Origin: Minutocellus sp. GHC0000111 | Taxonomy: Eukaryota | DNA length: 64,000 nt | Assembly: GCA_977018835.1 (NCBI GenBank) | Contig: OZ361257.1 | Coordinates: 2,356,001-2,420,000, forward strand | Direction of reading: 5' to 3' | In this document: positions 8,284-43,176 of the stretch, piece by piece | Numbering within the stretch: the first letter of the stretch is position 1 | Layout: every line of letters begins with the position of its first letter | The notes under the pieces: model-generated | The model's input: only the letters and a program-made list of their open reading frames with translations | Told to the model about the DNA's origin: nothing | Database searches by the model: none | Program-made: the position numbers and the translations under genes

Positions 8284-8387
8284 ACACGTGTAAAATATTT
8301 TATCACTGTAAATAAAAATGGATTTATTGTGTGCTGTTACTCACGTGCTACGCACATTCTTGTTATCTACATGTGTTGAGGTAATGA

Positions 8388-11812: not shown

Positions 11813-12217
11813 GGTTGGTTGCTGGTGGGGCGGCAGGTATCTCATTTTGCCATGCAGAAGATCTGAGATTGAAAGATCTTCACCTTTTTCTTCCTTTCTT
11901 CCTTTTTTCCCCTTTTGGTAGCTCCATCGATCGGCGAACAGGCAGGAATCAATGCGCTTAGTTGTTTGTAAAGCTCTACCGGTACCAGTCCTATGCGCTT
12001 CGGGTAGACCGAGCTATTTAACCGCTAGCTGGGTCAACAAATACGCAAGCGGCGTTATGAGTAAATACTTCCGGCTTTCTTTGCTTGATCTACTTTCTTC
12101 ACTTCCCATCGCCTCATGTCAATCTGATAGAAACGTCTTTGTAGAAAATTGTCATGCATACGTAGATCTACTATAGATTAGTAAGCGCTAATGCGATCCT
12201 TTTACAATTTGATCAAA

Positions 12218-12516
12218 TTACAGCAAAAGCCCTTTATTCACATCCTCCAAATTTCGTAGCAACGCTTCCTGTCTCTTCAGCCGTTTGTCCAATGCGGCCT
12301 TGGTGTGTTCCACAACTTCATTTGGCGCCTTCTCTAGGAAGTCGGATGTTTCTAGTTTGCAAGAGAGGATGTTGATACTCTTTCGGTTTCTTTCCATCTG
12401 CTTCTCGATCAAGTCCCGCCTTTCCTTGAGCTTCTGTGTCTTCGACTTGGGAGTGGTGGAAGAAGAACGTCGGACCTTGTTCGACTTCTCTTCGAATCCC
12501 TTGACATTGATCAACG
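12218..12516 (-). pseudogene. 3' fragment of rtcB (coiled-coil tail only), truncated at a rearrangement junction
   Basis: Reverse complement of 18533..18831 (LINVKGFEEK...NKGLLL). Confidence 0.85.
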
Positions 12517-14185
12517 CAGCAGCAATTTCTGGCTGACCGACGAGGACTACAATCGAATTCGCCGGGGCATCAAAAAGGACGTTCGGAAAGCTCGCGCTTG
12601 TGCCATCCTCATCAACGGGGATGGCGGCAACATCCCACCGCCGTCTCTGAACGAGGACGAAACGACCCTCCGCGGCATCGAGCATCTCCAGAGCCGAGAG
12701 GTTCTCCAGCAGCTGGTCCACCTCAAGGATGGCGCCATCGAGGCCGTCTTCCGGGAGCAGGAGCGCCAGGCCACGTTGGGAAGGGCCATCGACGGCCGGG
12801 CCATTGCCAAGGTCTACATGGTCCACGCCAGGCAGGACGCCCTCGCGCGTGCCGCCTCCGACGAGGCCTTTGTGCTTGCCGATAGAATTTCAACCACTAC
12901 CACTACCACTGACACTCTTACCAAGCAGCAGTACCTTGAACTTCTAAAGAAATCGATCGCCATCGACTTGGACACAAGCCAAGCACACACTGCTGCTGAC
13001 AACACTGCTACAACAATCGAGGAAGGATCAGCAAGGCCAACACCCTCAAGAGGCGCCGGTGGCATTCACGCCCCCAGCGCAGTCAATCCTCTGCAGCAGC
13101 AACAGGAAGACGATCAAGATGCACCAAATTATTCGCTGGGCTCTTGGCTCAATCACCACGACAGCCTGACGCTCGGTGGAACGAGAGGTGCCACGAAAGG
13201 TCCCCATCGCCGTCGTTCTTCCGAATGCACTGATACTAGCTAGTATGGTAACAGAGCAGTACTGTGATGCCAGATCCATCGATACCTTTTTACTTAAAAA
13301 AAATGAGCTCATGGCTCCGCTCCCAGTCTCCTGTCGTGCGAACAACAATTGGAATATTTGATATAAATATATATAAAAAGAATCTACGTAAAGGTTTATC
13401 GAGTTGTTATCTTGAAGAGATAGGGACAATATATGTGTGTTAGTCCCAAAATGCGCACTGTCCCAGTTCGCGAACTGGGATCCCAGTTTGCGAACTAGGA
13501 TTTATTTATCCCAGTTTGGAAACTGGGATCATAGGCACAATCTCAGTTTGCAAACTTGGATCAATCGAGAAATAATGAAAATTTAGCATGGATGATATCG
13601 CCTTTGCTTCTCCTCGCTTCATTTTTTCATAGTGAAGCAACACAGCCCAAACCTGGTCCAGACGTCCAGACGACATTAGTGCCGGAGCTGATACTCAATA
13701 AATTGGCATTAGCTGATACAAAATACATATAGTGAAAAATAATAATATCTAGCTAGCTGCTTCTGGCAAATATAAGTCATGAACTGTACATGCATCTGTG
13801 CTATGCCGGCATCATGTTGCTACTGTACCAGTACATGTAGCTTGCAAATTCAAGATATGATGCACAGTGCAACTTGTGTTGTAGATAGATCTACCAGTAC
13901 ATAATCATTGTGCATGAGCCAACACCGGCAGTTACCATTCTGACACTTGCCGAGAATGCCAGTTTCCAAACTGGTATTCATTTTTGTTCCAGTTCGCGAA
14001 CTCGTCTGGTTCCCAAATTCGGATTGGCGTGTTTATCTCAGTTTCCATTCTGGTAGTATCAGTGCGCAAACTGAGATCCTAGTTTGGGAACTGGGGCCCA
14101 GTGCGCAAACTGGGATAAATGAATCTCAGTTCGCAAACTGGGATCCCAGTTCGCGAACTGGGACAGTGCGCATTTTGGGACTAAC
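12516..14185. repeat. Inverted duplication of 3301..4980 (5'-truncated copy of the 4244..5080 gene plus MITE)
   Basis: Reverse-complement identity with a few SNPs and a 9-bp deletion (HARQARQD to HARQD); homology stops exactly at the MITE terminus 14185. Confidence 0.92.
13439..14185. mobile_element. MITE copy 2 (opposite orientation to copy 1)
   Basis: Same TIRs GTTAGTCCC...GGGACTAAC; TA/TG-rich flanks. Confidence 0.9.
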
Positions 14186-14219
14186 ATATATTTATTTCCT
14201 CCAATCCACCACCACCAAG

Positions 14220-15112
14220 ATGGTCTTCGTCAAGGTTCAAAAGTCCAAGGCGTACTTCAGCCGGTACCAGGTCAAGTTCCGCCGCCGCCGCGAGGGCCGC
14301 ACGGACTACCGCCAGCGCAAGCGCCTCGTCTGCCAGGCCAAGAACAAGTACCAGAGCCCCAAGTACCGCCTCATCGTCCGCTTCACCAACACCCAGGTCA
14401 TCTGCCAGATCGCCTACTCCCTCATCGACGGCGACCGCATCCTGTGCCAGGCCAACTCCAAGGAGCTCCCCCGCTACGGCCTCAAGGTCGGCCTCAAGAA
14501 CTACGCCGCCGCCTCCTCCAGAAGGTCGGCCTCGACGACGTCTACGAGGGCAACACCGAGATCGACGGCGAGGTCGTCTCCTGCGAGGAGGGAAAGAAGA
14601 CCTACTACGTCGACGAGGTCGACGAGGACAAGCGCCCCTTCCGCGCCCTCCTCGACGTCGGCTGCAAGGCCACCACCACCGGATGCCGCATCTTCGGCGC
14701 CCTCAAGGGGGCCGCCGACGGAGGCCTCGACATCCCCCACTCCGAGAAGCGCTTCCCCGGCTACGACCGCGACGCCAAGGAGTACGACGCCGACATGCAC
14801 CGCGAGCGCATCTTCGGCGGCCACGTCGGCGAGTACATGGAGTACCTCGAGGAGGAGGACAACCAGAAGTACCAGGAGTGCTTCGCCTCCTACATCGCCA
14901 ACGACGCCGACGCCGACGGCCTCGAGGAGCTCTACGAGTCGGTCCACGAGGCCATCCGGGAGGATCCCAGCCCCAGCGCCAAGAAGGACTTCAGCCCCGA
15001 CAAGTCCTACAAGCGCAAGGCCAAGCTCACCCTCGAGGAGCGCAAGGCTCGCGTCCAGGCCAAGAAGGACGCGAAAATTGCGGAATTGGAGGCCGTCTCC
15101 GATGACGAGTAA
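14220..15112 (+). pseudogene. RPL5: 60S ribosomal protein L5 (uL18), frameshifted
   Basis: [30 protein letters not shown]...GLKNYAAA, then frame change to LLQKVGL...[23 protein letters not shown]...; the conserved YxTGLLxARR segment is missing near 14514. Confidence 0.9.
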
Positions 15113-15213
15113 ATTATTACTACAGTAGTAAAAATAAATTTGCTTATCCAACGTCAACCTCGATACTATCTTGAGCAGTATGTTATAATTTCCTCCACTA
15201 GTATTATAGTAGC

Positions 15214-16680
15214 TTAGTTCTGCTTCGCATTGCCAAAGTCAATGCTCCCATTCCTAGCCTTACCATGTGCCATGCCCTCTTCGACGTCCTTTTCAGTGGT
15301 ACTGGCAGCAGCAGCACCATCATCAACACCATCGATATCTGCATTCATCAATTCAGCGACATCCCTCAATGAATTGCAGCCTCTGGACATTAGAATGAGC
15401 ATATCCAATACCTTTGGGCTCATGGCAGATAGCTCTTTTAAGCTCAACAGAACAATCAGGATCGAGGTGAGACTCCCACCACCAAAGGCAGAGGCGGTGA
15501 GCAGCCCATATGCCGCCAGAGCACCCAGAAAGTGGGAGAGGATCAAAAAGTTCGTCGTCCACGCCAAACGATGAAAGAAGCTCCGGAAAGTCGTCCGTCC
15601 AAATATCCAAAAGGATTTGCGACCATTCTTTGCCGTTGACTCCGATCCCCGTGAGACGGCGTCCGCCGAACAACTCATGTAGATCATCTGCCCCTCACGT
15701 ATCATGGTTTCGCATTCTTGTACCTTCCCATACAGCATGTTGAACCATAGAAATGGAGCTCCCATTGTGATCAAGCCAAACCCCACAAATACTGCCACAT
15801 ATGTGCCATAGTCGGACCCTTGCAGTTGTTGCATGTTCGAATTTGTCGAAATTGCGAGATTGCCAAAGCATAGAATCAACAGATATATAATCGAAACGAG
15901 ATCATCAAATATGGAAAGACAGGATTTCCATACGTTGTTTACGACATCATCGACGTCCTTCAATAGTCCTGTAAAGCGCCCGGCCGGCCACTTGATGGCA
16001 AGTGGATGATCGTCTGGAAGTGATGTTCGCTTCGACAACAAAACACTTCTCATCTGAACCCGCTGGCTATTTAATGGTACCCACATTTCGTACCACCAAT
16101 ACAAGGTCTTGGATATCATTTCCAGGAAGGTCGACGTCAAGTAAAGCCAGATAGGGACCGTGGTTGGATTCGATTCAATCTGTTGAGCTACATACGACAC
16201 AATGGCCGTCTGAAGCGGTCTCGTCACGCTCATGAGTAGGATCATGGCAACTGTCTTGTACGGTTTGGTGTGCCTCCACATGAATCGAAAGAAGTCGTAT
16301 ATCTGCCCATAGATGGATAAATCCTTCAAGTTGCGACCACTGGGCCATATCAGCACGGAATCCGCTGCGGGCTTTTCTGTCTTGCCCCCTCCTGCACTGA
16401 TCTGGCCATGCATGTACTCCTCCACCGTCCCCTCATACACGGCAGGATACGGACCAGGTTCCTTCCTCCACAGCTTGTTGCGGCTCATTCGATTCCAATC
16501 GACCTGAAAGCTTCGTTCACGTTCCATCCCAGACTCAATGTCGGCGGTATCGCGTTCGACGCCTTTGTGAAAGAGCGCGTCGAGTTGCCGATATCTTCGT
16601 GCCAATACGGCGTCCGAATCATCCTTGCAGCTCCATGGACCAGCGTCGCTGGATCCATTGGGGTCTGGTGGTGGCGACAT
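15214..16680 (-). CDS. Multi-pass membrane protein resembling an ABC-transporter type-1 transmembrane domain, no NBD
   Basis: About 6 hydrophobic helices; RVQMRSVLL..LP....AGRFTGLLKDVDDV resembles the ABC TM coupling region; no Walker motifs; probable ATG 16680 (upstream 16782 possible). Confidence 0.55.
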   Translation of the reverse strand: MSPPPDPNGSSDAGPWSCKDDSDAVLARRYRQLDALFHKGVERDTADIESGMERERSFQVDWNRMSRNKLWRKEPGPYPAVYEGTVEEYMHGQISAGGGKTEKPAADSVLIWPSGRNLKDLSIYGQIYDFFRFMWRHTKPYKTVAMILLMSVTRPLQTAIVSYVAQQIESNPTTVPIWLYLTSTFLEMISKTLYWWYEMWVPLNSQRVQMRSVLLSKRTSLPDDHPLAIKWPAGRFTGLLKDVDDVVNNVWKSCLSIFDDLVSIIYLLILCFGNLAISTNSNMQQLQGSDYGTYVAVFVGFGLITMGAPFLWFNMLYGKVQECETMIREGQMIYMSCSADAVSRGSESTAKNGRKSFWIFGRTTFRSFFHRLAWTTNFLILSHFLGALAAYGLLTASAFGGGSLTSILIVLLSLKELSAMSPKVLDMLILMSRGCNSLRDVAELMNADIDGVDDGAAAASTTEKDVEEGMAHGKARNGSIDFGNAKQN

Positions 16681-17196
16681 GTTGCTTCGTTGATGCTTTA
16701 ATGCTTGATTTTTTTCTATGTTGGCGTCGTGCGAGGCTCGGACGAGGCTGTGCATGTGGACTGTGTACATGCGCTGGTCCATAAGAGGTACTAGCTAGTA
16801 TGTTAGTTCTCGTTGCGCCGTCGGTGGCTCTGCCTGCGGTCTGCTCTGCGTCTGCGTATCTTTTGACAGTCGAGTGAGTCCAGAAAGATACGAGGGTGTT
16901 CAGGACAGCAATCAGTGAACCAAGCAGGAATTAGCTGCTTGCTGGTTTGAATGGTTGATGAAAGGCATTCATATCGCATGATTCATTGCTGTGCCTCTCG
17001 TTGGTGCTAAATATTAGCGCAGTAGAGCCTGTACTGGCTAGAGCTTAGGTGGCGGAGGCGATCTTTTCTTGACACGCCTCCACGGAGAGGATGGTAACCA
17101 GATATCTGATCTCCCCAGTGACAACATGTGACCGAGGCGATGAATGCACTTCCACGATTTTGCACTTCACTTCTCCAACAACAACTAATTAGGAAT

Positions 17197-18831
17197 ATGA
17201 AGTTGTCGAATGCTCGTGCATCAATCCTGCCGGCCTTGCTAACCATCGCTGTCGGCACTACAGGCGCTGATGCCTTTGTCCTCTCTCGCGAAACGCCAAG
17301 GCACTTCAGTTCGCAGATTCGCAGCAGCAGCGCGGGAGGAGACGAAGATTCGCCTACTAGCGAGTTTCCAAGGATTATAGAGACAAAGGGCGTGCCAATC
17401 TATTTGTACACGGATGACATTGAGTTCGAAGCCATCGAGCAGCTCAGGGTGCTTGCCGAGAGTCCCGTCCCAGTTGATTACGTATCGGCAATGCCAGGTG
17501 CTCATCTCGGAAAAGGAGTTACCATAGGCTCGGTATTTGCTTCAGAGAAGTACGTATGTCCGAATGCCGTGGGCGTGGATATTGGATGCGGAATGGCGGC
17601 TGTGCCCATCGATGGGCTGTACAAGAACCAACTGACAAACGATCAAATGAACGAGATCCAACGGCTCATCAAGGAACAAATCCCAACTGGATTTGAGCAG
17701 CATCGCAAGACGCTGGAGGGGACCCGCGAGGTGTTGACGCAGATCACCGATGAGGTGGAACCAACTCAGTACCTCAAGGACCAACTTTTGGAGCCTCGTG
17801 TCGCCGATCAGCTGGGCACCCTTGGAGGTGGCAATCACTTTCTCGAGGTGGTGTACGAGGAAGGTACCGAGCAGGTTTGGATCATGTTGCATTCAGGAAG
17901 TCGCAACATTGGCAATCGTGTCGCAACGCGGTACGACCAGGTGGCCAAAAGTTTGCTTTTGAGTCAGGGCGTGGACACCCAACCTCTTCGAGGTATTCAC
18001 TACATGCCTATCGACTCGCAAGAGGGACAGAATTATCTACGCGACATGGAGTGGTGTCAGCGCTACGCCTTTCATAATCGCCAGGCGATGCAAAATATCA
18101 TTGAGACGATTGTGGAAAGGGTCACCGGCAAACAGGCCAACGTTGCGAAAGGGACCAACATCCATCACAACTATTGTGCCTGCGAAGATTGCGGTGATGG
18201 CAGGCGACTGTGGATAACCCGCAAGGGCGCGACGTCCGCAAAGGCAGGAGAGTACGGTATTATTCCCGGATCGATGGGTACTGGCAGCTACATCACCCGG
18301 GGCCGAGGAAATCTCTTGAGCTGGAATTCATCATCCCACGGTGCAGGCCGGAGAATGTCGCGAACGAAGGCAAAGGCAGAGATCGCTCAGAGTGATTTTG
18401 AAAACGTCATGAAAGGGATTGTTTGCGACACCACGCCGGCCGTCAAAGACGAAGCTCCGCAAGCATACAAGGATCTCAATGTCGTTATGAAGAATCAAGA
18501 GTCTCTCACTGATGTCGTTCACCACCTTCTCCCGTTGATCAATGTCAAGGGATTCGAAGAGAAGTCGAACAAGGTCCGACGTTCTTCTTCCACCACTCCC
18601 AAGTCGAAGACACAGAAGCTCAAGGAAAGGCGGGACTTGATCGAGAAGCAGATGGAAAGAAACCGAAAGAGTATCAACATCCTCTCTTGCAAACTAGAAA
18701 CATCCGACTTCCTAGAGAAGGCGCCAAATGAAGTTGTGGAACACACCAAGGCCGCATTGGACAAACGGCTGAAGAGACAGGAAGCGTTGCTACGAAATTT
18801 GGAGGATGTGAATAAAGGGCTTTTGCTGTAA
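17197..18831 (+). CDS. rtcB: Bacterial-type RNA ligase RtcB, plastid-targeted, with C-terminal ValRS-like coiled-coil arm
   Basis: VGVDIGCGM, GTLGGGNHF, HSGSR, HHNY, PGSMG, SHGAGR, DEAPQAYK; signal peptide ending ADA-F; tail KLETSDFLEKAPNEVVE. Confidence 0.92.
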   Translation: MKLSNARASILPALLTIAVGTTGADAFVLSRETPRHFSSQIRSSSAGGDEDSPTSEFPRIIETKGVPIYLYTDDIEFEAIEQLRVLAESPVPVDYVSAMPGAHLGKGVTIGSVFASEKYVCPNAVGVDIGCGMAAVPIDGLYKNQLTNDQMNEIQRLIKEQIPTGFEQHRKTLEGTREVLTQITDEVEPTQYLKDQLLEPRVADQLGTLGGGNHFLEVVYEEGTEQVWIMLHSGSRNIGNRVATRYDQVAKSLLLSQGVDTQPLRGIHYMPIDSQEGQNYLRDMEWCQRYAFHNRQAMQNIIETIVERVTGKQANVAKGTNIHHNYCACEDCGDGRRLWITRKGATSAKAGEYGIIPGSMGTGSYITRGRGNLLSWNSSSHGAGRRMSRTKAKAEIAQSDFENVMKGIVCDTTPAVKDEAPQAYKDLNVVMKNQESLTDVVHHLLPLINVKGFEEKSNKVRRSSSTTPKSKTQKLKERRDLIEKQMERNRKSINILSCKLETSDFLEKAPNEVVEHTKAALDKRLKRQEALLRNLEDVNKGLLL

Positions 18832-19236
18832 TTTGATCAAATTGTAAAAGGATCGCATTAGCGCTTACTAATCTATAGTAGATCTACGTATGCATGACAA
18901 TTTTCTACAAAGACGTTTCTATCAGATTGACATGAGGCGATGGGAAGTGAAGAAAGTAGATCAAGCAAAGAAAGCCGGAAGTATTTACTCATAACGCCGC
19001 TTGCGTATTTGTTGACCCAGCTAGCGGTTAAATAGCTCGGTCTACCCGAAGCGCATAGGACTGGTACCGGTAGAGCTTTACAAACAACTAAGCGCATTGA
19101 TTCCTGCCTGTTCGCCGATCGATGGAGCTACCAAAAGGGGAAAAAAGGAAGAAAGGAAGAAAAAGGTGAAGATCTTTCAATCTCAGATCTTCTGCATGGC
19201 AAAATGAGATACCTGCCGCCCCACCAGCAACCAACC

Positions 19237-20782
19237 ATGCATCTTGGTATTAGGTCGGTCTGCCTTCTCTATTTATCGTCGCCGTCGGCTGCATTCCTCG
19301 TACCTGCGGCCACTTCCGCCAGCAACGGCAAAGCCTGCTGGCGGTCTGACCAGCACAGTGATGGAAAGATTCGCTTCTCGATCTTGACGGCACTTGCTCC
19401 TCAGAACGAGAAGCAGGGCGGTCAGGCTAATATCGAAGGAGAAGAAGCAAGTTCAGATGGGATTGCTGAATCAGGTGTCTTTCTCCATGGCTTTGAGGCC
19501 GATCTGGACCAGAAGATGGATGATCTGAAGGCTCAGTATGAGGAGTACAAAGAGTTTTCGGGCTCGTCGGCGGGAGGAATCGATAACAAGGTGAAGAGCA
19601 AAGTAGACGACGGAAGCAAGGACGACGAAACAGAAACCCCCGCCATAACGAGTACTGATCCAAATGCTAGAGGAAGCTATGGGTATGTGACCACTGGCGA
19701 TCGTCAGTTGACCGCAGCACAGCTGGAAGTTTTGTTTTTGGTTCCGCGAGAGCTGTGTGCTTTTGCATTATTTTTCCTCGAAATCTCTCCATCCTCATCT
19801 CAAGAGATCCATATCATTCTGTTTTTGCTGTTTCTTTGGTTTGCCAGGGATGAAGAATATCCTGCTCCGTACTACACTCCTCCGCCCAATTTCTTCGCTC
19901 TTGCGACAAATCAATTTGTTCGCAATCTCGATTCCATGTTGGGAAGGAACAAGGCAACGACAAGCAAGGGCGACGAGACAGTAGATCTCAGAGCCAAGTT
20001 GAACTCGCTGAAACTTCCATCTTGGGATCTTGAAAGCATCGCTCGGTGTGATAAAAGAGCCTCTCGTTCTTCGATCACCTTACCACTTGCTTTGTCCTCT
20101 CATCGACCTTGTCTATAAGCAGCCTGACGATAAGTTGAACTCGGGAAGCGCCATTCAACGCCTATGCATAATGGAGAAGATTGGTCGGGCACCATATCTC
20201 TCCTTTCTTTCTATGTTGAATCTTTATGAATCATTTGGCCTTTGGCGCCCTTCTGAAGATTTGAGGGTGGCCCATGCCCACCAGGAGCTATCCAAATTCA
20301 GAAGACAGAGGATGATCGAACAACTCGGTGGAGGTCAGACCTGGACGGCTAGATTCATTGCAGAACATGCTGCATTGTTTGCCCATCTCACAATCGTTCA
20401 CCTGTGGTTTCTTTCGCCAAGCCTTGCCTATCGTTTTGCCCAAATGATTGAAAGCCACGCCTTTCACACGTATGATGCCTTCCTTGAGCAAAATGAAAGT
20501 GCGCTCAAGTCGATGCCACTTTCATCCATTTCTGATGCCGACACCAGCACGCCCTATTCGAATCTTTTTGAGATGTTCTCTAATTTCAAAGACGACAATT
20601 CCATTCACTCTATGAGGCTGGCAGAGGCTTACTATCCATCGGTGGTGTTAAATGCCGCAGATAGCGAAAAGAAACTATTTCTTGGTCTCTTTGTGACTCT
20701 CATGGTCCTAAATTTCCTGCCCTCTAGCCTCGGGGATGGCACTTTCGCCGCTCTTTTTGATAAGATGCCTGGTTGGCCCTGA
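19237..20782 (+). pseudogene. Plastid-targeted PTOX/alternative-oxidase-like protein; intron 19683..19847; frameshift near 20045; degenerate diiron ligands
   Basis: Presequence SAA-FLVP; EKIGRAPYLSFLSMLNLYESFGLWR, SPSLAYRFAQMIESHAFHTY; gtatgt..ccag intron joins GSYG/DEEY. Confidence 0.7.
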
Positions 20783-21431
20783 GCTCCCCATCTTTCTTTG
20801 TACCGTTTCACTGGTGCACCGCCTTTCTAGTTACAGCTAGTATGGAAGTTTTCATTTGAATTGCCATGTTCTAATGTATTGTTAGTATTGTATTAACGCC
20901 CGGCACGTGGGAGTCGGAGAAAGTTATCTGTAAAATAATCATTATTGCATATAATGTCGAAGGCAACCAATTATTTCCAAATATTCGCTTATGGAAGTGC
21001 TAGCTAAATATTGCCAGGTGCTTGATTGGTTGTGCACACTTGGCCCCTCAATGAAGCCCATTAGGAATGTTCGTCTACAATGTTTGCGATGATGCGCCAC
21101 CGCCGGCACCCACGTGTTCGTGGATAGTAGCAGCGTCTAGAAATAAATAGTCAAGGCATTTTACTAACAGCTACTGCTCGAAGAATTCCGCTAGCTAAAT
21201 ACGTATCCTAAGATGGAACTATGCTAGTGATGCTGAGTTCATTGTTATTTGTTGAGTTATACGCCTGGCCTCTTTGTTAAAGTCGACGATCTTCGTCATT
21301 TGTGTTAAGAGGGCGCTGTCCATAATTTTCCCCGTTTTAATCCCCCTTATTCTTATTTCTTATGACGAGCGAAGCATGACAAAAACTCGACCCCACCATG
21401 AGAATCGCCGCTCTGCCCCCTCTTCATTACG

Positions 21432-22661
21432 ATGAAGCGCAGCGCTGATAATAGTGCCGGCCCGGCCCACAACGCAGATACGCGGTTGCGGAAACTCAAG
21501 ACAGATAACTCCGGTCGCCCGATTTTGCCTGTTGACAAGAAGAAAGAGAAGGCGGAGGACAAAGCGAAAGACGCCGTTACCGAGATACTGGAGGGCCTCG
21601 CCGTCACGTTGGAGAACGACCCGAACGGACAAGGACGAGAATTATGGAACAATCCCGGCGTCGGCCATGCACTTCAACATCTTGTCAAAGCAGTCGAGGC
21701 TCGCGCTGATAAGTATCATGTTCGGGATGATATTGATGTCGCTGCTGAGCGGCCCGGCCTCGTAGTTACCAACCTGTCCGTGGCTGATGTGAAGTTGAGG
21801 CTGACGGTCGGCATCGTCGATCAATTGCAAGATCCCATGTTTGACGCCGGACCTGAATTCTTCCCTATATTTCAACTTCATGGGAAACGGATCGATATTG
21901 GATCGGCTCTTGCTGCGCACGGCCGACCTTTCAACACCACATCGCTTACTTTGCTTGATGGAAGCGGAAAGCTTATCGTCGCTCGTGTTGCCCTGACAAT
22001 TACCGAAAAGGCCCGAAGTCTACAACAGGGCCATGTGATCAAATTGACAAAGTTCCACCGATGGCATGTGGCTCCATATGATGACATACACTCTACTGCT
22101 GGGATTGGACTAGTTGATTTTGATATTGTTGGAATGGGCCAACTTCTGCAGGTAGATGGTGGGCCATCAGCAGCGATCAGATCGGACACGGATGCTCTTG
22201 TTGCGGCCGTTTGTGAGGAAGCCGACGATGATCCGACGGCAGCGCCGGAGGCAGACACATTCGGTAATTGGGACGAGACCAGAGAGAGGCCGCCAATACC
22301 CCCTGCTTGCTGCACTGCCGCCAACCGAAGCTGCTCAATGTACGGCACACTCTTCTTTCAGAAATGCGTCTGCGAAGAAATGCTGGTGCCGACGGAGGAG
22401 GACCTGGAGGATATCGCTGACAAATACTACGCAACCACCATGCCAGTCGAAGCCATGGCAAATAATTTGAAGAGGAACATGCTGTATTGGTACTATGCAA
22501 CTGAGGTGTATCATGTGAGAGGTTGGCTTGATCGGAAGCCCTTGCCAACCTGTCTAGTCTTTTGCATTAGGTTCATTTATCCAAATGATAAAGGTGAACG
22601 ATATGTTGGATTCATCCCTGGTCATCAAGATGAAGAGGAAGAAGAAGAGGAAAATGCATAA
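21432..22661 (+). CDS. KolX-like protein, copy 2
   Basis: Same 409-aa translation as 8388..9617. Confidence 0.75.
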   Translation: MKRSADNSAGPAHNADTRLRKLKTDNSGRPILPVDKKKEKAEDKAKDAVTEILEGLAVTLENDPNGQGRELWNNPGVGHALQHLVKAVEARADKYHVRDDIDVAAERPGLVVTNLSVADVKLRLTVGIVDQLQDPMFDAGPEFFPIFQLHGKRIDIGSALAAHGRPFNTTSLTLLDGSGKLIVARVALTITEKARSLQQGHVIKLTKFHRWHVAPYDDIHSTAGIGLVDFDIVGMGQLLQVDGGPSAAIRSDTDALVAAVCEEADDDPTAAPEADTFGNWDETRERPPIPPACCTAANRSCSMYGTLFFQKCVCEEMLVPTEEDLEDIADKYYATTMPVEAMANNLKRNMLYWYYATEVYHVRGWLDRKPLPTCLVFCIRFIYPNDKGERYVGFIPGHQDEEEEEEENA

Positions 22662-22765
22662 TCATTACCTCAACACATGTAGATAACAAGAATGTGCGTA
22701 GCACGTGAGTAACAGCACACAATAAATCCATTTTTATTTACAGTGATAAAATATTTTACACGTGT

Positions 22766-25292
22766 TTACAAGCTGCCATTTTCTCTCAGTATCGCCGGCA
22801 TCCAAGAGCTAACATCATTTGCCGATACACCGAAGTTTGTCTTAGCTTTCTTATTATTTCTTGCAGATTTCTTGTTGCTGCCTGGGCTTCTGCGCTTCTT
22901 TCCGGCGTAAACGACAACGTCGTCAGCATCGTCGCATTGACATTCAGCCCGAGTGTGGCCAAGCTGCTTGCATTTCTGACACTGCTGGTCAATCTTCTTC
23001 TTGCGGCCAGGCTTTGCTGGTTTCGCCTTACCAGCAGCTAGGGCCCTGTTCTTCTTGTACACATAGTCCTTGTCGTCTTTCTCGCTTCTGTTTCGCAAGG
23101 CTGCTCGAAGGCGCTTGCTGTCGCTCTTGCTCTTTTTGTACTCATCGGTGCGCTTACGCGCAAGGTCGCCCTCGAGCTTCCGGTCAATTGCATCGAATCC
23201 ATCTTTTCGGGTAGGAGAATCCCTCGATCCCAACTTTCCAAGAACTCGCTCATTGAATTCCGTACCCAGTGACTTGTGGCCAGCGGCTCTACTTGTTGCA
23301 TTTGGGTAGGCGTCTGAAGCAGTCAAATTCGGCCTTTTCCCCATCGTGAACTTCGTCACCATCCCGTTGAGCTGTTCGACGCCGGTGGTAGATTCCTTCT
23401 TGCAGTTGGAGTCGGCAGTATTCTTGTTGATTCTCTTGGTTATTTCAAGCGTCATCTTGCGAATCGTGTCGTCACTAATCTCCAATATGTCGCCATCGAA
23501 TTGATTCCCCGAGCTCCATTCCTCATCGAGCTTGCCATCACTCCAATCAGGATGAGCAATGCTGAGGCGAATCCAATCACACGTGTTGGTGGTGCAAAAA
23601 GTGTGAATGCCACATTGGTGACGAACGACGGACTGGAGTTCTTTCTGAAGGAGGGCCAGATGACTTTGTTTTTCCTCCTCGGACACAGCACCATCGGGCT
23701 GATCGAGAACGCTGTGCTTGTACCGATCAGTAATCTTCGAAATGTCCTGTTTCATCCGATTGATGCGTGGTCGGGGGATGGCATTAAAATTTTCAACTCC
23801 TTTGCAAACTTTTCGAAAGCCTGAGTCAATTGAATTGCTCAGATGATTAAAGTCACGGCAAAGCTCAACACCAGAAGCCAACTCATCACCTACTATGTCT
23901 TCCTGAGCGGCTGCTGCCCTAGTAATGCCTTTGCTATCGCCATCGGCAACGTGCTTCTCAACGAAAAGAGGACACGCCTGCACGCTTCCTTCATCGTCGA
24001 CCAGAAGATTCCGTCCAACATTCTCGGCCAGATGCTCCTCTGCCACACCGGGGGAGTAGGAAGAGTTGCGATAGCAGAAGCCATCATGGTCGTACAGGGC
24101 CAGTATCTCATCCTTGCTCATGTTTTTGAGCTCACTCGGCGTTATTGGATTGCCGGCTTCCCGCCTCTCCCTCAATCTTGCATTGCAGGCTCTCACGCAA
24201 CAGTGGCAGCTTGCCTGAGAGATTCCCTTGTCAACAACAAGGCCAGTTTCCTTGTCTACGGCAAACACCGCTGCAGCAGAGCCAGTGTAGCAATGGCCGT
24301 AGTCGCGTTTGAGGGCGCTGCCGTCTTGGGCCACCGCAACCACCGCCGCCGTGTGCATCTCGCCGCCTTGTTCAAACTCAACAGTCTTGCTGCTAGCGGC
24401 ACATGCTTTTGCCCTGTTCTCGTCAATGATTTCATCAGCTGCTTCAATAGCCGCTGCTCTGCATTTCTTTTCCACCTGTCGGGCATTCTTTTCGGTCGGA
24501 TGGACGATGTCGGCCTTCGTGCAGAAATTCATGAAGCGACTTGCGTGCATGGCCTCATCTTCCGCTGCCTCCATCAGCTCCAAGTTCATTCCAGCCTGAC
24601 TTCTAGAATGCTTTCTGCCGGGGCACACAACTTCTGACCTCTGGCCGATCCAAGTGCAAAAAGAAAAAGGTTGGTTGCATCTGTCGCATCGCCATTCAAA
24701 TGTAACGCCGAATCCACGCCGAACTGGCTCGGCCGAGAGACACAGATTGCCGCACGATCGGTGGAGACTCTGCACGAAGTCACACAGCTGCTTCATCTCA
24801 ACCACAATTCTTTTGCCGTTGAGCTGCACGCCGGTGATGTTGGGACGATCGGTAGCGTTGGCGGTGGGAGTAGATGACCGACCGCCCGAAGAATTCTTGT
24901 CGGAATAATATTTCAGTGTCGCGTTGAGATGGGGCCCATGCTTTTCATCGTCCTGGAAGTAATTTCAGGTGTGGTCGGCAGTGATAGCTTGCCATTGCGT
25001 TGAGAGCGTGGGCTGGCGTTGTCGGCTGTTCTGGAGAAGCGGTAGAAGGGCTTTGCAACGTCAAGGCCTGATATTTTCTCTGGACGTCGTCGTTGGACAT
25101 TGACCTCGTGTCGTGTTGGGACGTGTGAAGAGATGATCGAACAAGAGAGATCTCTAAGCTCGGCGACACGCCACCGCGCACCAAGATACGGACAAGCTCA
25201 TCAATAGTGTAGTAAGTACATCTGACGTCGTCTGGGAATGAGAGCAAGAGTGAGAGGATTGCCTCCTTGGCGTTAGCACGTGATGTTTCCAT
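22766..25292 (-). pseudogene. Kolobok transposase, copy 2, with two 1-bp deletions near the 5' end
   Basis: Mirror of 5755..8283; single-base deletions at ~25126 and ~24963 (possibly read errors). Confidence 0.75.
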
Positions 25293-27336
25293 GGTTGTTT
25301 TTTGCTTTGTGTCGGCTCTGGCGCAAGATGCGCTTTTCGATGAGAACCTTACAAAAAGAACCCCAAATGAGGGAGACGTTCGGCGTGGATTCGGCGTTAC
25401 ATTTGAATGGCGATGCGATAGATGCAACCAACCATTTTCTTTTTGCACTTGGATCGGCCAGAGGTCAGAAGTTGTGTGCCCCGGCAGAAAGCATTCTAGA
25501 AGTCAGGCTGGAATGAACTTGGAGCTGATGGAGGCAGCGGAAGATGAGGCCATGCACGCAAGTCGCTTCATGAATTTCTGCACGAAGGCCGACATCGTCC
25601 ATCCGACCGAAAAGAATGCCCGACAGGTGGAAAAGAAATGCAGAGCAGCGGCTATTGAAGCAGCTGATGAAATCATTGACGAGAATAGGGCAAGAGCACA
25701 TGCAGCTAGCAGCAAGACTGTTGAGTTTGAACAAGGCGGCGAGATGCACACGGCGGCGGTGGTTGCGGTGGCCCAAGACGGCAGCGCCCTCAAACGCGAC
25801 TACGGCCATTGCTACACTGGCTCTGCTGCAGCGGTGTTTGCCGTAGACAAGGAAACTGGCCTTGTTGTTGACAAGGGAATCTCTCAGGCAAGCTGCCACT
25901 GTTGCGTGAGAGCCTGCAATGCAAGATTGAGGGAGAGGCGGGAAGCCGGCAATCCAATAACGCCGAGTGAGCTCAAAAACATGAGCAAGGATGAGATACT
26001 GGCCCTGTACGACCATGATGGCTTCTGCTATCGCAACTCTTCCTACTCCCCCGGTGTGGCAGAGGAGCATCTGGCCGAGAATGTTGGACGGAATCTTCTG
26101 GTCGACGATGAAGGAAGCGTGCAGGCGTGTCCTCTTTTCGTTGAGAAGCACGTTGCCGATGGCGATAGCAAAGGCATTACTAGGGCAGCAGCCGCTCAGG
26201 AAGACATAGTAGGTGATGAGTTGGCTTCTGGTGTTGAGCTTTGCCGTGACTTTAATCATCTGAGCAATTCAATTGACTCAGGCTTTCGAAAAGTATGCAA
26301 AGGAGTTGAAAATTTTAATGCCATCCCCCGACCACGCATCAATCGGATGAAACAGGACATTTCGAAGATTACTGATCGGTACAAGCACAGCGTTCTCGAT
26401 CAGCCCGATGGTGCTGTGTCCGAGGAGGAAAAACAAAGTCATCTGGCCCTCCTTCAGAAAGAACTCCAGTCCGTCGTTCGTCACCAATGTGGCATTCACA
26501 CTTTTTGCACCACCAACACGTGTGATTGGATTCGCCTCAGCATTGCTCATCCTGATTGGAGTGATGGCAAGCTCGATGAGGAATGGAGCTCGGGGAATCA
26601 ATTCGATGGCGACATATTGGAGATTAGTGACGACACGATTCGCAAGATGACGCTTGAAATAACCAAGAGAATCAACAAGAATACTGCCGACTCCAACTGC
26701 AAGAAGGAATCTACCACCGGCGTCGAACAGCTCAACGGGATGGTGACGAAGTTCACGATGGGGAAAAGGCCGAATTTGACTGCTTCAGACGCCTACCCAA
26801 ATGCAACAAGTAGAGCCGCTGGCCACAAGTCACTGGGTACGGAATTCAATGAGCGAGTTCTTGGAAAGTTGGGATCGAGGGATTCTCCTACCCGAAAAGA
26901 TGGATTCGATGCAATTGACCGGAAGCTCGAGGGCGACCTTGCGCGTAAGCGCACCGATGAGTACAAAAAGAGCAAGAGCGACAGCAAGCGCCTTCGAGCA
27001 GCCTTGCGAAACAGAAGCGAGAAAGACGACAAGGACTATGTGTACAAGAAGAACAGGGCCCTAGCTGCTGGTAAGGCGAAACCAGCAAAGCCTGGCCGCA
27101 AGAAGAAGATTGACCAGCAGTGTCAGAAATGCAAGCAGCTTGGCCACACTCGGGCTGAATGTCAATGCGACGATGCTGACGACGTTGTCGTTTACGCCGG
27201 AAAGAAGCGCAGAAGCCCAGGCAGCAACAAGAAATCTGCAAGAAATAATAAGAAAGCTAAGACAAACTTCGGTGTATCGGCAAATGATGTTAGCTCTTGG
27301 ATGCCGGCGATACTGAGAGAAAATGGCAGCTTGTAA
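25291..27336 (+). CDS. Chimeric N-truncated Kolobok transposase created by the fold-back junction
   Basis: Antisense-derived MVVFCF...EGDV fused in frame to RRGFGVTFEW...; full DDE core and CCHC retained; expression unknown. Confidence 0.5.
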   Translation: MVVFCFVSALAQDALFDENLTKRTPNEGDVRRGFGVTFEWRCDRCNQPFSFCTWIGQRSEVVCPGRKHSRSQAGMNLELMEAAEDEAMHASRFMNFCTKADIVHPTEKNARQVEKKCRAAAIEAADEIIDENRARAHAASSKTVEFEQGGEMHTAAVVAVAQDGSALKRDYGHCYTGSAAAVFAVDKETGLVVDKGISQASCHCCVRACNARLRERREAGNPITPSELKNMSKDEILALYDHDGFCYRNSSYSPGVAEEHLAENVGRNLLVDDEGSVQACPLFVEKHVADGDSKGITRAAAAQEDIVGDELASGVELCRDFNHLSNSIDSGFRKVCKGVENFNAIPRPRINRMKQDISKITDRYKHSVLDQPDGAVSEEEKQSHLALLQKELQSVVRHQCGIHTFCTTNTCDWIRLSIAHPDWSDGKLDEEWSSGNQFDGDILEISDDTIRKMTLEITKRINKNTADSNCKKESTTGVEQLNGMVTKFTMGKRPNLTASDAYPNATSRAAGHKSLGTEFNERVLGKLGSRDSPTRKDGFDAIDRKLEGDLARKRTDEYKKSKSDSKRLRAALRNRSEKDDKDYVYKKNRALAAGKAKPAKPGRKKKIDQQCQKCKQLGHTRAECQCDDADDVVVYAGKKRRSPGSNKKSARNNKKAKTNFGVSANDVSSWMPAILRENGSL

Positions 27337-27440
27337 ACACGTGTAAAATATTTTATCACTGTAAATAAAAATGGATTTATTGTGTGCTGTTACTCACGTG
27401 CTACGCACATTCTTGTTATCTACATGTGTTGAGGTAATGA

Positions 27441-28670
27441 TTATGCATTTTCCTCTTCTTCTTCCTCTTCATCTTGATGACCAGGGATGAATCCAACATA
27501 TCGTTCACCTTTATCATTTGGATAAATGAACCTAATGCAAAAGACTAGACAGGTTGGCAAGGGCTTCCGATCAAGCCAACCTCTCACATGATACACCTCA
27601 GTTGCATAGTACCAATACAGCATGTTCCTCTTCAAATTATTTGCCATGGCTTCGACTGGCATGGTGGTTGCGTAGTATTTGTCAGCGATATCCTCCAGGT
27701 CCTCCTCCGTCGGCACCAGCATTTCTTCGCAGACGCATTTCTGAAAGAAGAGTGTGCCGTACATTGAGCAGCTTCGGTTGGCGGCAGTGCAGCAAGCAGG
27801 GGGTATTGGCGGCCTCTCTCTGGTCTCGTCCCAATTACCGAATGTGTCTGCCTCCGGCGCTGCCGTCGGATCATCGTCGGCTTCCTCACAAACGGCCGCA
27901 ACAAGAGCATCCGTGTCCGATCTGATCGCTGCTGATGGCCCACCATCTACCTGCAGAAGTTGGCCCATTCCAACAATATCAAAATCAACTAGTCCAATCC
28001 CAGCAGTAGAGTGTATGTCATCATATGGAGCCACATGCCATCGGTGGAACTTTGTCAATTTGATCACATGGCCCTGTTGTAGACTTCGGGCCTTTTCGGT
28101 AATTGTCAGGGCAACACGAGCGACGATAAGCTTTCCGCTTCCATCAAGCAAAGTAAGCGATGTGGTGTTGAAAGGTCGGCCGTGCGCAGCAAGAGCCGAT
28201 CCAATATCGATCCGTTTCCCATGAAGTTGAAATATAGGGAAGAATTCAGGTCCGGCGTCAAACATGGGATCTTGCAATTGATCGACGATGCCGACCGTCA
28301 GCCTCAACTTCACATCAGCCACGGACAGGTTGGTAACTACGAGGCCGGGCCGCCCAGCAGCGACATCAATATCATCCCGAACATGATACTTATCAGCGCG
28401 AGCCTCGACTGCTTTGACAAGATGTTGAAGTGCATGGCCGACGCCGGGATTGTTCCATAATTCTCGTCCTTGTCCGTTCGGGTCGTTCTCCAACGTGACG
28501 GCGAGGCCCTCCAGTATCTCGGTAACGGCGTCTTTCGCTTTGTCCTCCGCCTTCTCTTTCTTCTTGTCAACAGGCAAAATCGGGCGACCGGAGTTATCTG
28601 TCTTGAGTTTCCGCAACCGCGTATCTGCGTTGTGGGCCGGGCCGGCACTATTATCAGCGCTGCGCTTCAT
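27441..28670 (-). CDS. KolX-like protein, copy 3
   Basis: 409 aa; one E->G change (AAGRP) versus the other copies. Confidence 0.75.
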   Translation of the reverse strand: MKRSADNSAGPAHNADTRLRKLKTDNSGRPILPVDKKKEKAEDKAKDAVTEILEGLAVTLENDPNGQGRELWNNPGVGHALQHLVKAVEARADKYHVRDDIDVAAGRPGLVVTNLSVADVKLRLTVGIVDQLQDPMFDAGPEFFPIFQLHGKRIDIGSALAAHGRPFNTTSLTLLDGSGKLIVARVALTITEKARSLQQGHVIKLTKFHRWHVAPYDDIHSTAGIGLVDFDIVGMGQLLQVDGGPSAAIRSDTDALVAAVCEEADDDPTAAPEADTFGNWDETRERPPIPPACCTAANRSCSMYGTLFFQKCVCEEMLVPTEEDLEDIADKYYATTMPVEAMANNLKRNMLYWYYATEVYHVRGWLDRKPLPTCLVFCIRFIYPNDKGERYVGFIPGHQDEEEEEEENA

Positions 28671-28811
28671 CGTAGTGAAGAGGGGGCAGAGCGGCGATTC
28701 TCATGGTGGGGTCGAGTTTTTGTCATGCTTCGCTCGTCATAAGAAATAAGAATAAGGGGGATTAAAAACGGGGAAAATTATGGACAGCGCCCTCTTAACT
28801 CATTCCAAGGC

Positions 28812-31708
28812 ATGTCCAGCCCCTTCGAGTACCGATCCCTCGGTCGTCTGGCCATTCGCTCCCGGCAGCGACAGCTCGTTGCCACATACGACGACGTCGA
28901 GCGTGAGTGGAAGGCCGAGCTGGCCATCTACGAACGGGGCGGGAGCAACGGGGATGCCAGAGATGATCGCAACTACGCCAACAATGAGCGCAGGGTGGTG
29001 CACAAGAACTTGTTTCCGTACCACGACGCATTCTATCCTCTGCTGGATGTGTACTATCATCTAGAGGAAGATAATTTGCATCCGTTGGGACCCAGCGGTG
29101 GTGACGTTCGACCGGAGAACTACCCATCTCCGTTGCACGATGTGGCGTCCCGACGGGAGCTGGAGGTTGGCGAGGTGGCCATTCCAGGACACATGAACAA
29201 TTCGGCGCACGCGGTATGCATGGCGCTGCTTCCGAGATATCGGTGCAGAGATGACGTATGGTCGCGGCACGATGAGGCAACCAACTTATTTGATCCCACG
29301 GTAGATCTCCCCTCGGTCCTTTCCTCTTGGGAGGATAAACATTGGCAAGATGATCCGTTGGAAGCTGCCATGGACTCCTACGCCAGTTTTTCTTTGACGC
29401 GAAGCAACGTTTCTTTGTTCGGTCCGGAAAATCTTTTCTTCTCCACGGGCAGAGCAGAAGTGGGCATTCTACTGACCAGGGTCCTAAAGCATGCGTTGTC
29501 CGACTTGCAGAAGGATCATGTGCTTGGTCGAGCTGTGATGAATCTCATGATGGAATTTCGAATATTTGACCGCGACATTGACGAGGATAGCGATGATGGC
29601 GGGGTCAATAGACTCGCCCGGGTTTTGGCGGTCTTTGCATCGGAATATGTGACCGGGTGCGATTGGTATTGCCACAATAGATATCTTGATGCAGTTCAAG
29701 CTGCTGGGGAGCAAGGAGACGACGATGATGCACCACAGCCGCCGAGTCACTACTGCTCAGATTGGAAACACATAATTACGACGCTGTCAGACATCATCCC
29801 TTACGGCATGACATTTGTATCGGAAGGCCATGCTGAGATTATCGCCGCTTTCGTTTTGAATGAATATGACAGTGTGTCTGAAGCAGCTGCGAAAATTGAC
29901 GCCCAGTATTTCGAGTGCGGTGTCCCTCAAGATAAATCGGAAAATCCCGACGAATCAAGCAAGCTCAATGCCACTGCCGTCTTGAAACAGAATTTATTTT
30001 ATCACAATAATACATCGGGATTCGCGGGAGCGGCAGCCTTGCAGCATACCGCAAACGACGACGGTCCTCATGACGTTCCAGAACAATTTAGGGTGTCGAT
30101 GATCAAGGCAATAGTCGAAGGATTATTTAATCATGCTTTGAAAGACCGGTTCGAATTGAAATGGCTTGCGGATGAGGAGAAGCTTTGTGCGAGCTGTGGC
30201 AAGTCGAACTCTTCTCTCAAGCGATGCACGGGATGTAAGAGTGTGTGGTACTGCGATATCACCTGTCAGAAGGCTCACAGGAAAGAACACAAGTCATTCT
30301 GCAGAAAGATTGATGCCGTTGGAGATGCACGCGTTGATAATGCAAAATACGACTTGCTTCGAAAAGTCGCCGAGTCCTATCAAAACTGCATCCGAGCACT
30401 GGTTGCAATTGGAGAGCATACGATCCGCAGATTGCCGCCCAATACTCGAACAGCAGAGATTGGTGGGACCATCGTTAGAGCCATTGTTCTGGGAACTATC
30501 GATGGTAACCCTCAAAAGGCCGAAGAAAATGCTTATGTTGGCAAAGGTATTATTGGATATGAAGAAAAGGATTTGATTTGCCCCACCAGACTTGCCGATG
30601 CCGTATCAAATGCCGATAAAGTTCTTCGTGGACCTTTAAAAGCTCCCACACCATCCGATTCTATTGAAACAATCGCCAGATCTGTCCTCGACGCAGCTCT
30701 GCCGCAAGACGCACAAGATGTTGTCAGAGGTCTGTTCATTCGAGATTTAGTTGATCTCAACATCGCGGGATTTGGTTATAGCGACTTTTTGGTGTGGTGT
30801 GGTCTACCAATCACCCCAATGGACCCCTTACTCTACGACCATAACATCCAGTACCCTGAGGAAGATGACTTGCCTTGGGTTAGCGATGAGGAGGGAAAAG
30901 AGCTCAGTGGGTATGAGATTGCGTCTCGGATTGATTTTTCTATTCTCATGCTTCAGAGGGCCTGGAATGCTCCCTGGACGCCGAAATCTCACCAAAGCTT
31001 CTCTACGCATCACAAGGCTGCTATGAAAACTTGTTGCAATGATCGCTTGGAAATGTGGTATGCCAAACGAAATTTCATTGAGAGTCAACGCTTTTCTTCC
31101 TCGGTCTTGGTGGCCCGACGATCGAAAGCAATGCTGGTGTCATGACTGCCAGTTGCTCAGTCTCTCCACCTCTCTCAGAGATAAAGTTACCACGCGCGAG
31201 GCCTCATCTTCGCATCCACCATCTCTGCCGCAGGATTTACCACAGCAGCTTCCCGCGACAATGCACAATACCTCTCTCATGCGATCACTGCCGCCCGCCA
31301 AGCCGAGCGACTCTACCCGCCTGACCCAGTGCCATTCACCTGTGTATTACTGCAGCAAGGAGCATCGAAAGTATCTGATGCAAGACGGACATAAGCGAGT
31401 GTGTGGCATGCCCCCATTTCGAGCTCATGGTATCGAGGAAGAATTACTTGTTCGTGAGGTATTTGGTAAACCGGACGCCGGCGCAAATAAGTGACGATGA
31501 CATGGATGAGGACAGCGAAGATGATGCGGAATTTTGCGGCAGCGATGACGAGAGTTGCTGGGAGAGTGTCGGCAGCGACGAAGAGGACGATGAGTATGCC
31601 ACGCCGATCCAGAGGACTCGTACCGAAATCATCTACAAGTTCTTCAACAGCAAAAGCTACAAGAGGTACGAGGTTGAGCGAGATGGTTTACCCACTGGTG
31701 GGCTCTAG
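28812..31708 (+). CDS. MYND zinc-finger protein (apparent frameshifts near 31040 and 31480)
   Basis: CASCGK...RCTGCKSVWYCDITCQKAHRKEHKSFC; continues in ORFs 31039..31494 (second Cys/His finger) and 31403..31708. Confidence 0.7.
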
Positions 31709-36288: not shown

Positions 36289-37445
36289 CTACCCAGCTCG
36301 ACATCTCGAAAGCTCCACCGATTCCTGGGCTTTGCTATCGAGGAATTGCACAACCACCTTCCCATCCGAATCTCCCTTGATAAAATATGCCTTCTTGTCG
36401 TCGACCAGAACGATATCGCCAACTCCAAAGGGTAGAGGCTCCTCTTCTTTCTCCTCTTTCGGACCCCATATCTTGTTCGCTCTATCCCGAACCAAATCAT
36501 GTCCAGGATCGTCAGTTCCGGTGTATTCGTCGTCGGCCTCCTTCTTCTTGAATGCACTTTCCAACCATTTCTTGCGGTCTGACGCCAGATCGGATCCAGG
36601 ATTGGCAGTACCAGTCGCCACGGGTTCGCTTTCTTCTTTCTTTTGCGATTGTTCTGCGAGCCACTTGGCCCGATCCTTGACCAAATTGGATCCTGGATTG
36701 GCAGTGCCGCTGGCAGCTGGCTCAGCGTTGGCTTCCTCTTCCTTCTTCCCCCATATCGCCTTCATCCTATCCTTTACAAGATCGGAACCCGGTGCCTGAC
36801 TACCCGAATAGTTGGTCTCTGCTTCCTCTTCCTGCTTCTTCTTGAATGCATTCTCGAGCCATTTCTTCCGATCCGATGCCAAGACAGAGCCGGGATTGGA
36901 CGAACCAGATGCCACCGATTCGCTATCCTCCTTCTTTTGCGATTGCTCGGCCAACCACTTGGCACGGTCCTTGACCAGATTTGATCCTGGATTCTCCGTG
37001 CCGCTAGCCACTGGCTCCTTCTTGGCTTCCTCTTCCTTCTTGCCCCAAATGGCATTCATCCGATCCTTGACGAGGGCTGATCCAGGTGCCTGACTTCCAG
37101 TGCACTTGGAATCATCGTCGTCGGCGTCCTTCTTCTTGAATGCACTTTCCAACCATGCCTTTCTATCAGATGCCAGCGCACCACCCGGCGCCTGATGTGC
37201 GCCCGAAAAGGTGTGCTCCTCGTCCTCCTTCTTTTTAGCCTGCTCGGCGAGCCACTTTTGTCGGTCGCCGAACCACTTGGCATGGCTTCGTCGTCGCTGC
37301 TGTCCTTCTTCTTGAATGTCTCCTCCAGCCACTTCTTCTTGTCTGATACTTCCAGATTGCTCATTTTCTGTGCAGCTTCATCGGCAGTATCCTCCCCCAT
37401 TAGCTTGGCGTTCGCCAGCCTCGTACGTTCGGCCGCATTGGACAT
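36289..37445 (-). CDS. Tandem-repeat protein (~29-aa units, DRKKWLESAFKKK type) with C-terminal SH3/Tudor-like barrel; frameshift near 37260
   Basis: ORFs 37056..37445 and 36289..37332 overlap in different frames; about 10 repeats; tail FGVGDIVLVDDKKAYFIKG..GKVVVQF. Confidence 0.7.
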
Positions 37446-42864: not shown

Positions 42865-42942
42865 GGTTGAGGGGCGTTTGTGCTGATATGCCGATCGAGG
42901 CCGGCGGCGAACGATAGCTTCAACAGTCAAAAATTTGGCCAT

Positions 42943-43176
42943 TGTGGGTACCGCACGGTGGGGATGAGCTGGCGACGGTGGTTAGCAGCAGGCACTAAAA
43001 CTGCATTCCTGTTAGGGCCCAGTTTTTCTGCTGACCACCACCTTCGCCTCCTCTCGTCTCAACTGACCAAGCCACAACCATCTGCGATTGCTGCCGTTGC
43101 AATTGCTAAGTCAGCTTACAGTACCGGCTCCCAGAGCCTGTCTCTCTCTCTCTCTCTCAGTAGTTAGTTAGTTTTA
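42943..43176 (+). repeat. Split direct repeat A1
   Basis: Near-identical to 50975..51210. Confidence 0.9.

Follow-up and report, generated by a model that had tools for sequence, protein, structure and literature searches.

The window analysed here, a stretch of 64,000 nucleotides of contig OZ361257.1 (positions 2,356,001 to 2,420,000 of the forward strand, GenBank assembly GCA_977018835.1) from the diatom Minutocellus sp. GHC0000111, holds one intact copy of a Kolobok DNA transposon and two partial copies that face each other as the arms of a long inverted repeat. The blocks of the window follow one another as X, a miniature inverted-repeat transposable element (MITE), B, C, the intact transposon K1 and F, then, beyond a first junction (J1), B', MITE', G, F' and the partial copy K2', and, beyond a second junction (J2), the partial copy K3 and the host gene H. 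Both junctions reverse the strand.

K1 (5291-9740, + strand) measures 4,450 bp, ends in 17-bp terminal inverted repeats (TIRs) and is flanked by TTAA at 5287-5290 and 9741-9744. It carries an open transposase frame of 842 aa (5755-8283, + strand), whose catalytic roles are assigned by motif, and a convergent open reading frame (ORF), ORF2, of 409 aa (8388-9617, - strand), with an RPA70N-like oligonucleotide/oligosaccharide-binding (OB) fold at residues ~116-250 and a KolX/P2RX7_C-like C-terminal domain. The 104-bp gap between the two frames (8284-8387), further copies of which lie at 22662-22765 and 27337-27440, has one AATAAA on each strand and is likely a shared 3' end region. To the left of K1 stand a MITE (3300-4050), B1 and C (together 3300-5286), where B1 belongs to the first allele of a block duplicated at 12517-14186; to the right stands F (9745-12516, - strand), with AOX-like gene(s) and the truncated 3' end of RtcB. 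At J1 (12516-12517) F switches strand into B' with 1 bp of microhomology and a near 5-bp match alongside. The inverted block B2'-MITE-G (12517-18532) contains the second allele of B, the MITE, RPL5, a 526-aa ORF and the 5' part of RtcB, and the inverted second copy of F, F' (18533-21304, + strand), completes RtcB (17122-18831) and bears AOX-like ORFs (19036-20782) whose reading direction is towards the left arm.

The left arm (21309-24724, - strand) is the right-hand 3.4 kb of K2, a copy of K1, with ORF2 on the + strand (21432-22661) pointing inward. The spacer D' (24725-25377, - strand) corresponds to K1 positions 5668-6324 reversed; it includes the codon at which the transposase starts, while the left end of the element is missing, and two 1-bp deletions shift the frame of the transposase start region. 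At J2 (25378-25379) this K1-derived DNA is joined to K3, the right arm (25378-28794, + strand), which is cut at K1 position 6325, keeps an open frame for at least the last 607 aa of the transposase and has its ORF2 on the - strand (27441-28670), again pointing inward. The MYND-finger gene H (28812-31145, + strand) comes directly after the TTAA of K3, and W, the DNA that naturally lies upstream of it, is not found in the 64-kb window. The MYND protein is recorded on a single contig of 3.03 Mb.

Geometry and parentage of the inverted repeat

Comparison of the window with itself by BLAST returned an inverted match between 21301-24724 and 25378-28802 at 99.65% identity, which bears out an earlier reading of the letters alone (the sequence-only reading), according to which arms of ~3.4 kb are inverted around a spacer of ~650 bp. 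The arms are 3,416 bp (21309-24724) and 3,417 bp (25378-28794) long, differ at 11 positions, share a perfect run of up to 2,058 bp and are separated by 653 bp; this is far beyond chance, since the longest inverted self-match after base shuffling was 0-56 bp in five of five shuffles. Confirmed, too, were a junction with microhomology of GT only, the sole letters that J2 has in common with both parent sequences, and right ends followed by TTAA at both termini: the 17-bp TIR of the element's right end lies at 21309 (+) and 28794 (-), with TTAA outward of each arm (21305-21308 and 28795-28798). What had escaped notice was the third, intact copy at 5291-9740, the second strand-switch junction at 12516 and the true extent of the duplication, in which 5668-12516 recurs inverted at 18533-25379 with 99.9% identity and thus reaches 2.8 kb beyond the transposon into host genes. 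A second inverted pair found by self-comparison joins 3299-4980 and 12516-14187 (98.5%).

Parentage was examined in unstranded contigs from five of the 23 sequencing runs listed, the 23 being mostly sponge or marine metagenomes; X1 holds the stretch best and is possibly the source run, X6 is a second run of the same sample, and all depths quoted below are contig depths, which are no copy numbers. Insertion K1 is what was copied into the left arm, the spacer and 2.8 kb of adjoining flank; the right arm is a different insertion, K3. K1 with F and K2 with F differ at 6 of 6,849 positions, three of them within the 653-bp spacer, whereas K3 differs from the common sequence of K1 and K2 at 11 of ~3,416. 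Both K1 and K2 lack an extra A at 9710 that is present in 10,100 of 10,466 units of depth in X1, and so share a rare allele; they also share T and G at the 25699-25700 sites, which are absent from the contigs of X1, X4 and X7, and K1 agrees with the spacer at all eight listed sites checked.

The empty sites lead to the same pair of parents. That of K1 joins C to F (a loose end in two of four runs) and that of K3 joins W to H (one of four runs), where protein P0291, from another contig, reads through; the H contig begins exactly at 28794 in X1 and X7, as would be expected if both alleles were present. Because the empty sites C|F and W|H differ, each TTAA flank is the right-hand duplication of an insertion of its own, and the proposal that the structure is a fold-back derivative of one element does not hold. 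The right arm being another insertion, its 11 private variants mark the second copy only: they are true differences from the other two copies, K1 and K2, and lose the bearing once given to them as an argument against a chimera. The idea that a self-contained fold-back had been mis-joined within the left arm was also considered and rejected, as spacer and arm carry K1 alleles up to the junction.

Junctions and origin of the rearrangement

Both J1 (12516) and J2 (25378) are new joins, because the parental joins are continuous in other data: F-G' was found in four of four runs, B-C as a loose end in three of four and the D-E joint in three of four, and RtcB runs unbroken from G into F'. In X1, the F-G' and B-C contigs both break exactly at 12516, and since Logan contigs contain each 31-mer once (PMC12424806), these breaks mark a branch of the graph. 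In the same run F has a depth of 397.8 vs 307.3 for G, an excess of 90, and the bin 12355-12649 leaves 12,886 units unexplained, compared with 6, -12 and 3 in X4, X6 and X7; the excess in X1 needs an unlisted junction piece at J1 of ~63-125x.

The explanation favoured here, with a probability of roughly 0.55, is a real template-switch rearrangement in one clonal lineage whose product is inert and would give hairpin RNA only if transcription passed through the junction. Briefly, the parental order is assumed to have been X-MITE-B-C-K1-F-G'-MITE-B...W-K3-H. Synthesis would have reached the end of F and then switched ~6 kb ahead to the opposite strand, creating J1; such a change of orientation needs a second switch, which J2 would supply. 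Running back 12.9 kb into K1, synthesis would then have switched into K3 and regained its direction, leaving a 6.85-kb inverted duplication, a 6-kb inversion and the loss of W together with the left end of K3. The simplest parent we infer has B-C-F-G in tandem repeat through the MITE, which fits depths of 2-3 times that of H. MMBIR, a break-induced replication mediated by microhomology, is described as using short microhomology and as yielding inverted duplications with deletions near existing repeats (PMC2621351), and this combination of inverted duplication, deletion and nearby repeats is present here. Relative to the 2-5 bp of microhomology in MMBIR, J2 has 2 bp and J1 has 1 bp exact with the near 5-bp match, although 1-2 bp also arises by chance. 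[quoted passage not shown] Clonal diatom cultures have been reported to gain 30-kb duplications and deletions within weeks (10.1101/2020.11.08.373134).

Several observations weigh against template switching. The branch signature at J1 is indirect, occurs in one of four runs (X1) and is absent from X6, and X1 may be the source run, so that its signature may not be independent. J2 was bridged in no contig among the matches listed for four runs, a weak test in a family at ~10,000x; by its pruning rules, graph cleaning could remove a single-copy branch at J2, where the element stands at that depth. The two 1-bp homopolymer deletions of the spacer are absent from all four runs, the A at 9765 on the K1 side is in no contig listed for them, and such private variants of the duplicated copies suggest that few reads lie behind them, though repair prone to errors would fit as well. 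The MYND gene H has two frameshifts relative to P0291 and P0292, the tandem B-C-F-G order inferred for the parent rests on contig depth and hence on no copy number, and strand-displacement amplification routinely yields inverted chimeras (PMC9484634). Two wider searches were uninformative. A 26-mer across J2 had no match in a JGI metagenome scan, in which the positive control from gene H gave only a chance match to a bacterial-looking contig; exact look-up of reading frames that span J1 or J2 found none, and the intact K1 transposase and four other controls were likewise absent (three of ten found).

It is possible, though distinctly less probable than template switching, that the structure is an artefact of library or assembly, in which one or two inverted amplification chimeras, or a mis-join through the high-copy element, stitched the K1 locus to the K3 locus. 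The unbridged J2, the confinement of the J1 signature to the possible source run and not its sister, and the error-like private variants, three of six of which crowd into the 653-bp spacer, would all suit such an origin, as would the frequency of inverted chimeras after strand-displacement amplification, if the library was made in that way. They must be set against a J1 at ~63-125x in X1, which is near the single-copy depth of H (133x) and far above a single read, against a J2 that is not a homologous join, so that ordinary repeat collapse gives no such junction, and against long ORFs that stay open elsewhere in the window, including all three copies of ORF2. Alternative transposition followed by aborted re-replication, started by the transposase itself as for the Ac killers, appears very improbable. 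In composite Ac insertions, copies of one element end do occur in inverted orientation and are fused at break points inside the element (10.1101/2020.01.07.897926), and an intact transposase gene is at hand (5755-8283), but Ac insertions are flanked by the duplication of one target whereas F and H here come from different empty sites, the arms derive from two copies, and the element end nearest to J1 is 2.8 kb away. Still less credible is one element that folded back and then inserted as a 7.5-kb unit with two right ends: both ends are indeed right TIRs followed by TTAA, but the flanks are not halves of one target, F pairing with C and H with W, and the left arm brings the rare alleles of K1 and 2.8 kb of its flank. 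Summed over template switching, a start by the transposase and the silencing locus weighed below, a real rearrangement of any kind is probable.

The Kolobok family and neighbouring genes

By its TTAA duplication, RR..YY ends, transposase motifs and KolX-like ORF2, the element is a Kolobok and not a MuDR transposon. Mutator target duplications are about 9 bp long. Membership of MuDR/Mutator was considered and set aside on the 4-bp TTAA duplication and on TIRs of 17 bp vs ~215 bp in maize Mu (PMC3440606). Kolobok is defined by TTAA duplication and RR..YY ends (PMC9587614), and K1 has both: it ends in GA..TC with a perfect 17-bp TIR, giving 5'-RR..YY-3' termini, and TTAA occurs on both its sides but singly at the empty sites C|F and W|H. 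The transposase motifs are D324, a CCHC-type finger (363-407), D451/D453, DxxH (481-484), a second finger (559-572) and E640, compared visually with the Kolobok alignment in the supplement of PMC9587614, with catalytic roles that are predicted; the motifs of this protein (P0001) are kept in the full-length relatives P0005 and P0007. The transposase also matches Pfam PF20700 "Mutator" (E 1.6e-20), a label that cannot separate the two superfamilies because both share the C/DxxH signature (PMC9587614).

Searches of PDB and Pfam with ORF2 as a single sequence or with six sequences gave no match, and a protein atlas returned only leads below 0.9. A representative library contained 252 relatives, and 22 of the 94 aligned matched Pfam P2RX7_C at E<=0.01 (best 2.7e-5) while ORF2 itself did not; the profile of the relatives matched the P2X7 C-terminus (E 4.8e-4) and RPA70N (E 3.1e-4). 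KolX has been described as related to the cytoplasmic ballast domain of P2X7 (PMC9587614). The model of ORF2 (predicted local distance difference test score 81.8) resembles RPA70N with Z 11.6 and a root-mean-square deviation of 2.4 over 112 aligned residues (Foldseek E 3.1e-4), and fold searches with the whole model returned the OB domain alone.

The element thus resembles the Kolobok superfamily (Kojima and Bao 2022, PMC9587614) in its TTAA duplication, RR..YY ends and short TIRs, in a DDE transposase that has DxxH and, ahead of the last E, a finger, and in an opposite-strand accessory gene with a KolX/P2X7-ballast-like domain, and diatom members are known. It departs from it in that ORF2 adds an RPA70N-like OB fold, which is absent from the main text of that study, and in that its KolX-like gene co-occurs with a CCHC-type finger after the first D, unlike in Kol0; in that study the finger is listed for KolobokP, E, D, 5 and a few solitary families but not for Kol0. 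For those who classify transposons, a diatom Kolobok accessory protein that combines an OB fold with a KolX-like domain may be of interest. Contig depth, again no copy number, is ~11,000 on the element vs 133 on the neighbouring gene H in X1 and ~8,000 vs 113 in X4, and the size of two protein clusters (170 and 71 members) is in line with many family copies. A 215-bp internal deletion of the transposase (window 26086-26302), whose joint occurs at high depth in four of four runs, is a common non-autonomous variant of the family, and one contig of the RNA run X2 leaves the element at 25960 into two telomere-type hexamer repeats.

The remaining features of the window concern host genes and other repeats. 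The RPL5 fragment is 86-87% identical to named proteins of Seminavis robusta and two further diatoms. RPL5 (14220-15112) lacks 31 nt near 14505-14524 and is frameshifted relative to P0020, which is intact and 99% identical; across this lesion the window is matched gaplessly by contigs of X1, X4 and X6, and P0019 is the shifted product, so that the broken copy seems common in an amplified unit. The 750-bp MITE, present at 3300-4050 and 13438-14186, has TIRs of ~92 bp that start with TGT and is very deep in all runs (~17,000 in X1); one copy ends 33 bp before the RPL5 start, and no target duplication was readable for the copies in the window. Blocks B, F and G (4051-5286 and 9745-18532) stand at a contig depth 1.4-3 times that of H in X1, X4 and X7, which suggests that in several samples the RPL5-RtcB-AOX-like block has been amplified in tandem by way of the MITE. 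The MYND gene (28812-31705) has frameshifts near 31030 and 31470 relative to its 972-1017-aa relatives P0291 and P0292, which reflect either decay after K3 inserted 13 bp before its start codon or consensus errors. The C-terminal coil of RtcB (17122-18831) matches the tRNA-binding arm of valyl-tRNA synthetase (E 1.4e-7). Short direct repeats of 95-99% identity (42942-43174 with 50974-51210, and 50838-50977 with 51257-51396) and a degenerate tandem array (36527-37176) are unrelated to the fold-back.

Hairpin RNA and silencing potential

The sequence-only reading likened the locus to Mu killer of maize, and this comparison survives in part: the geometry agrees, in that a partial element is inverted, one end occurs twice and a long RNA stem is predicted, while the superfamily is Kolobok and not Mutator. 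Both arms lack the upstream region of the transposase and both ORF2 genes point inward, so that the inward promoters would be the putative ones of ORF2; 527 bp separate the end of the AOX-like gene from the left arm. A real junction that works as Mu killer does would require transcripts started at an inward ORF2 promoter, or in the AOX-like gene, to read through, giving a 3.4-kb hairpin that Dicer would process and that would silence the Kolobok family in trans, an outcome regarded as unlikely. In its favour, 3,189 of the 3,389 possible 28-mers are perfectly paired between the arms and the junction region is predicted to fold as a long RNA stem; in Phaeodactylum inverted-repeat constructs silence genes (PMC2724275), and diatom RNAs of 25-30 nt map to silenced transposons (PMC4247016) and are Dicer-dependent (PMC11910954, citing Grypioti 2024). 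Such an RNA must, however, cross the 104-bp gap with AATAAA on both strands and then 2,717 further bases to J2, and the family looks recently active, judging by intact ORFs, polymorphic sites and the two protein clusters (170 and 71 members). Since convergent genes are already a feature of intact copies, family small RNA would not single out this locus, and the long-hairpin model is disputed even for Mu killer (PMC3440606). The RNA run X2 includes a contig of 2,501 letters over 26302-28799 at a depth of 264, compared with 3-9 on H; as this ratio is like that of the DNA runs and the data are unstranded, the contig says nothing about transcription.

As in Mu killer and also in the Ac killers, part of an element is present here in inverted duplicate, with one and the same end occurring twice. 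Like Mu killer, the locus has host genes on both sides and a parent element with two convergent genes; it differs in superfamily, in arms that come from two insertions, and in that these keep the accessory-gene end and the 3' three quarters of the transposase, whereas Mu killer keeps the transposase promoter end (PMC3440606). With the Ac killers p1-ww-id1 and id4 it shares inverted ends fused internally beside an inverted duplication of host DNA, but no single target duplication surrounds the structure and neither junction lies at an element end (10.1101/2020.01.07.897926). Double-stranded RNA and small interfering RNA have been demonstrated for the Ac killers (10.1101/2020.01.07.897926); the present locus, in contrast to these and to Mu killer (PMC3440606), is known from sequence alone. 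A limited search of titles and abstract openings found, among the results listed, no natural killer allele in a diatom or for Kolobok.

The locus adds one more case to a known class of structure, in which the reality of J2 is uncertain, and for the present it is best taken as either an ordinary rearrangement or an artefact. There is an outside chance that it is a natural "Kolobok killer", in which two insertions of a still-active, high-copy family, fused into one 3.4-kb hairpin gene under inward ORF2 promoters, would feed the Dicer pathway and shut the family down in the carrier clone; in that case its small RNAs could be traced by the alleles that tag either arm. For the question of how silencing begins anew in diatoms the locus would offer a clean test, with arms that bear their own alleles and a junction that is apparently polymorphic. 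Should the junction prove genuine, it captures a high-copy DNA transposon family in the act of supplying the raw material of a hairpin locus in a diatom, by a slip of repair between two insertions and not by one element folding back.

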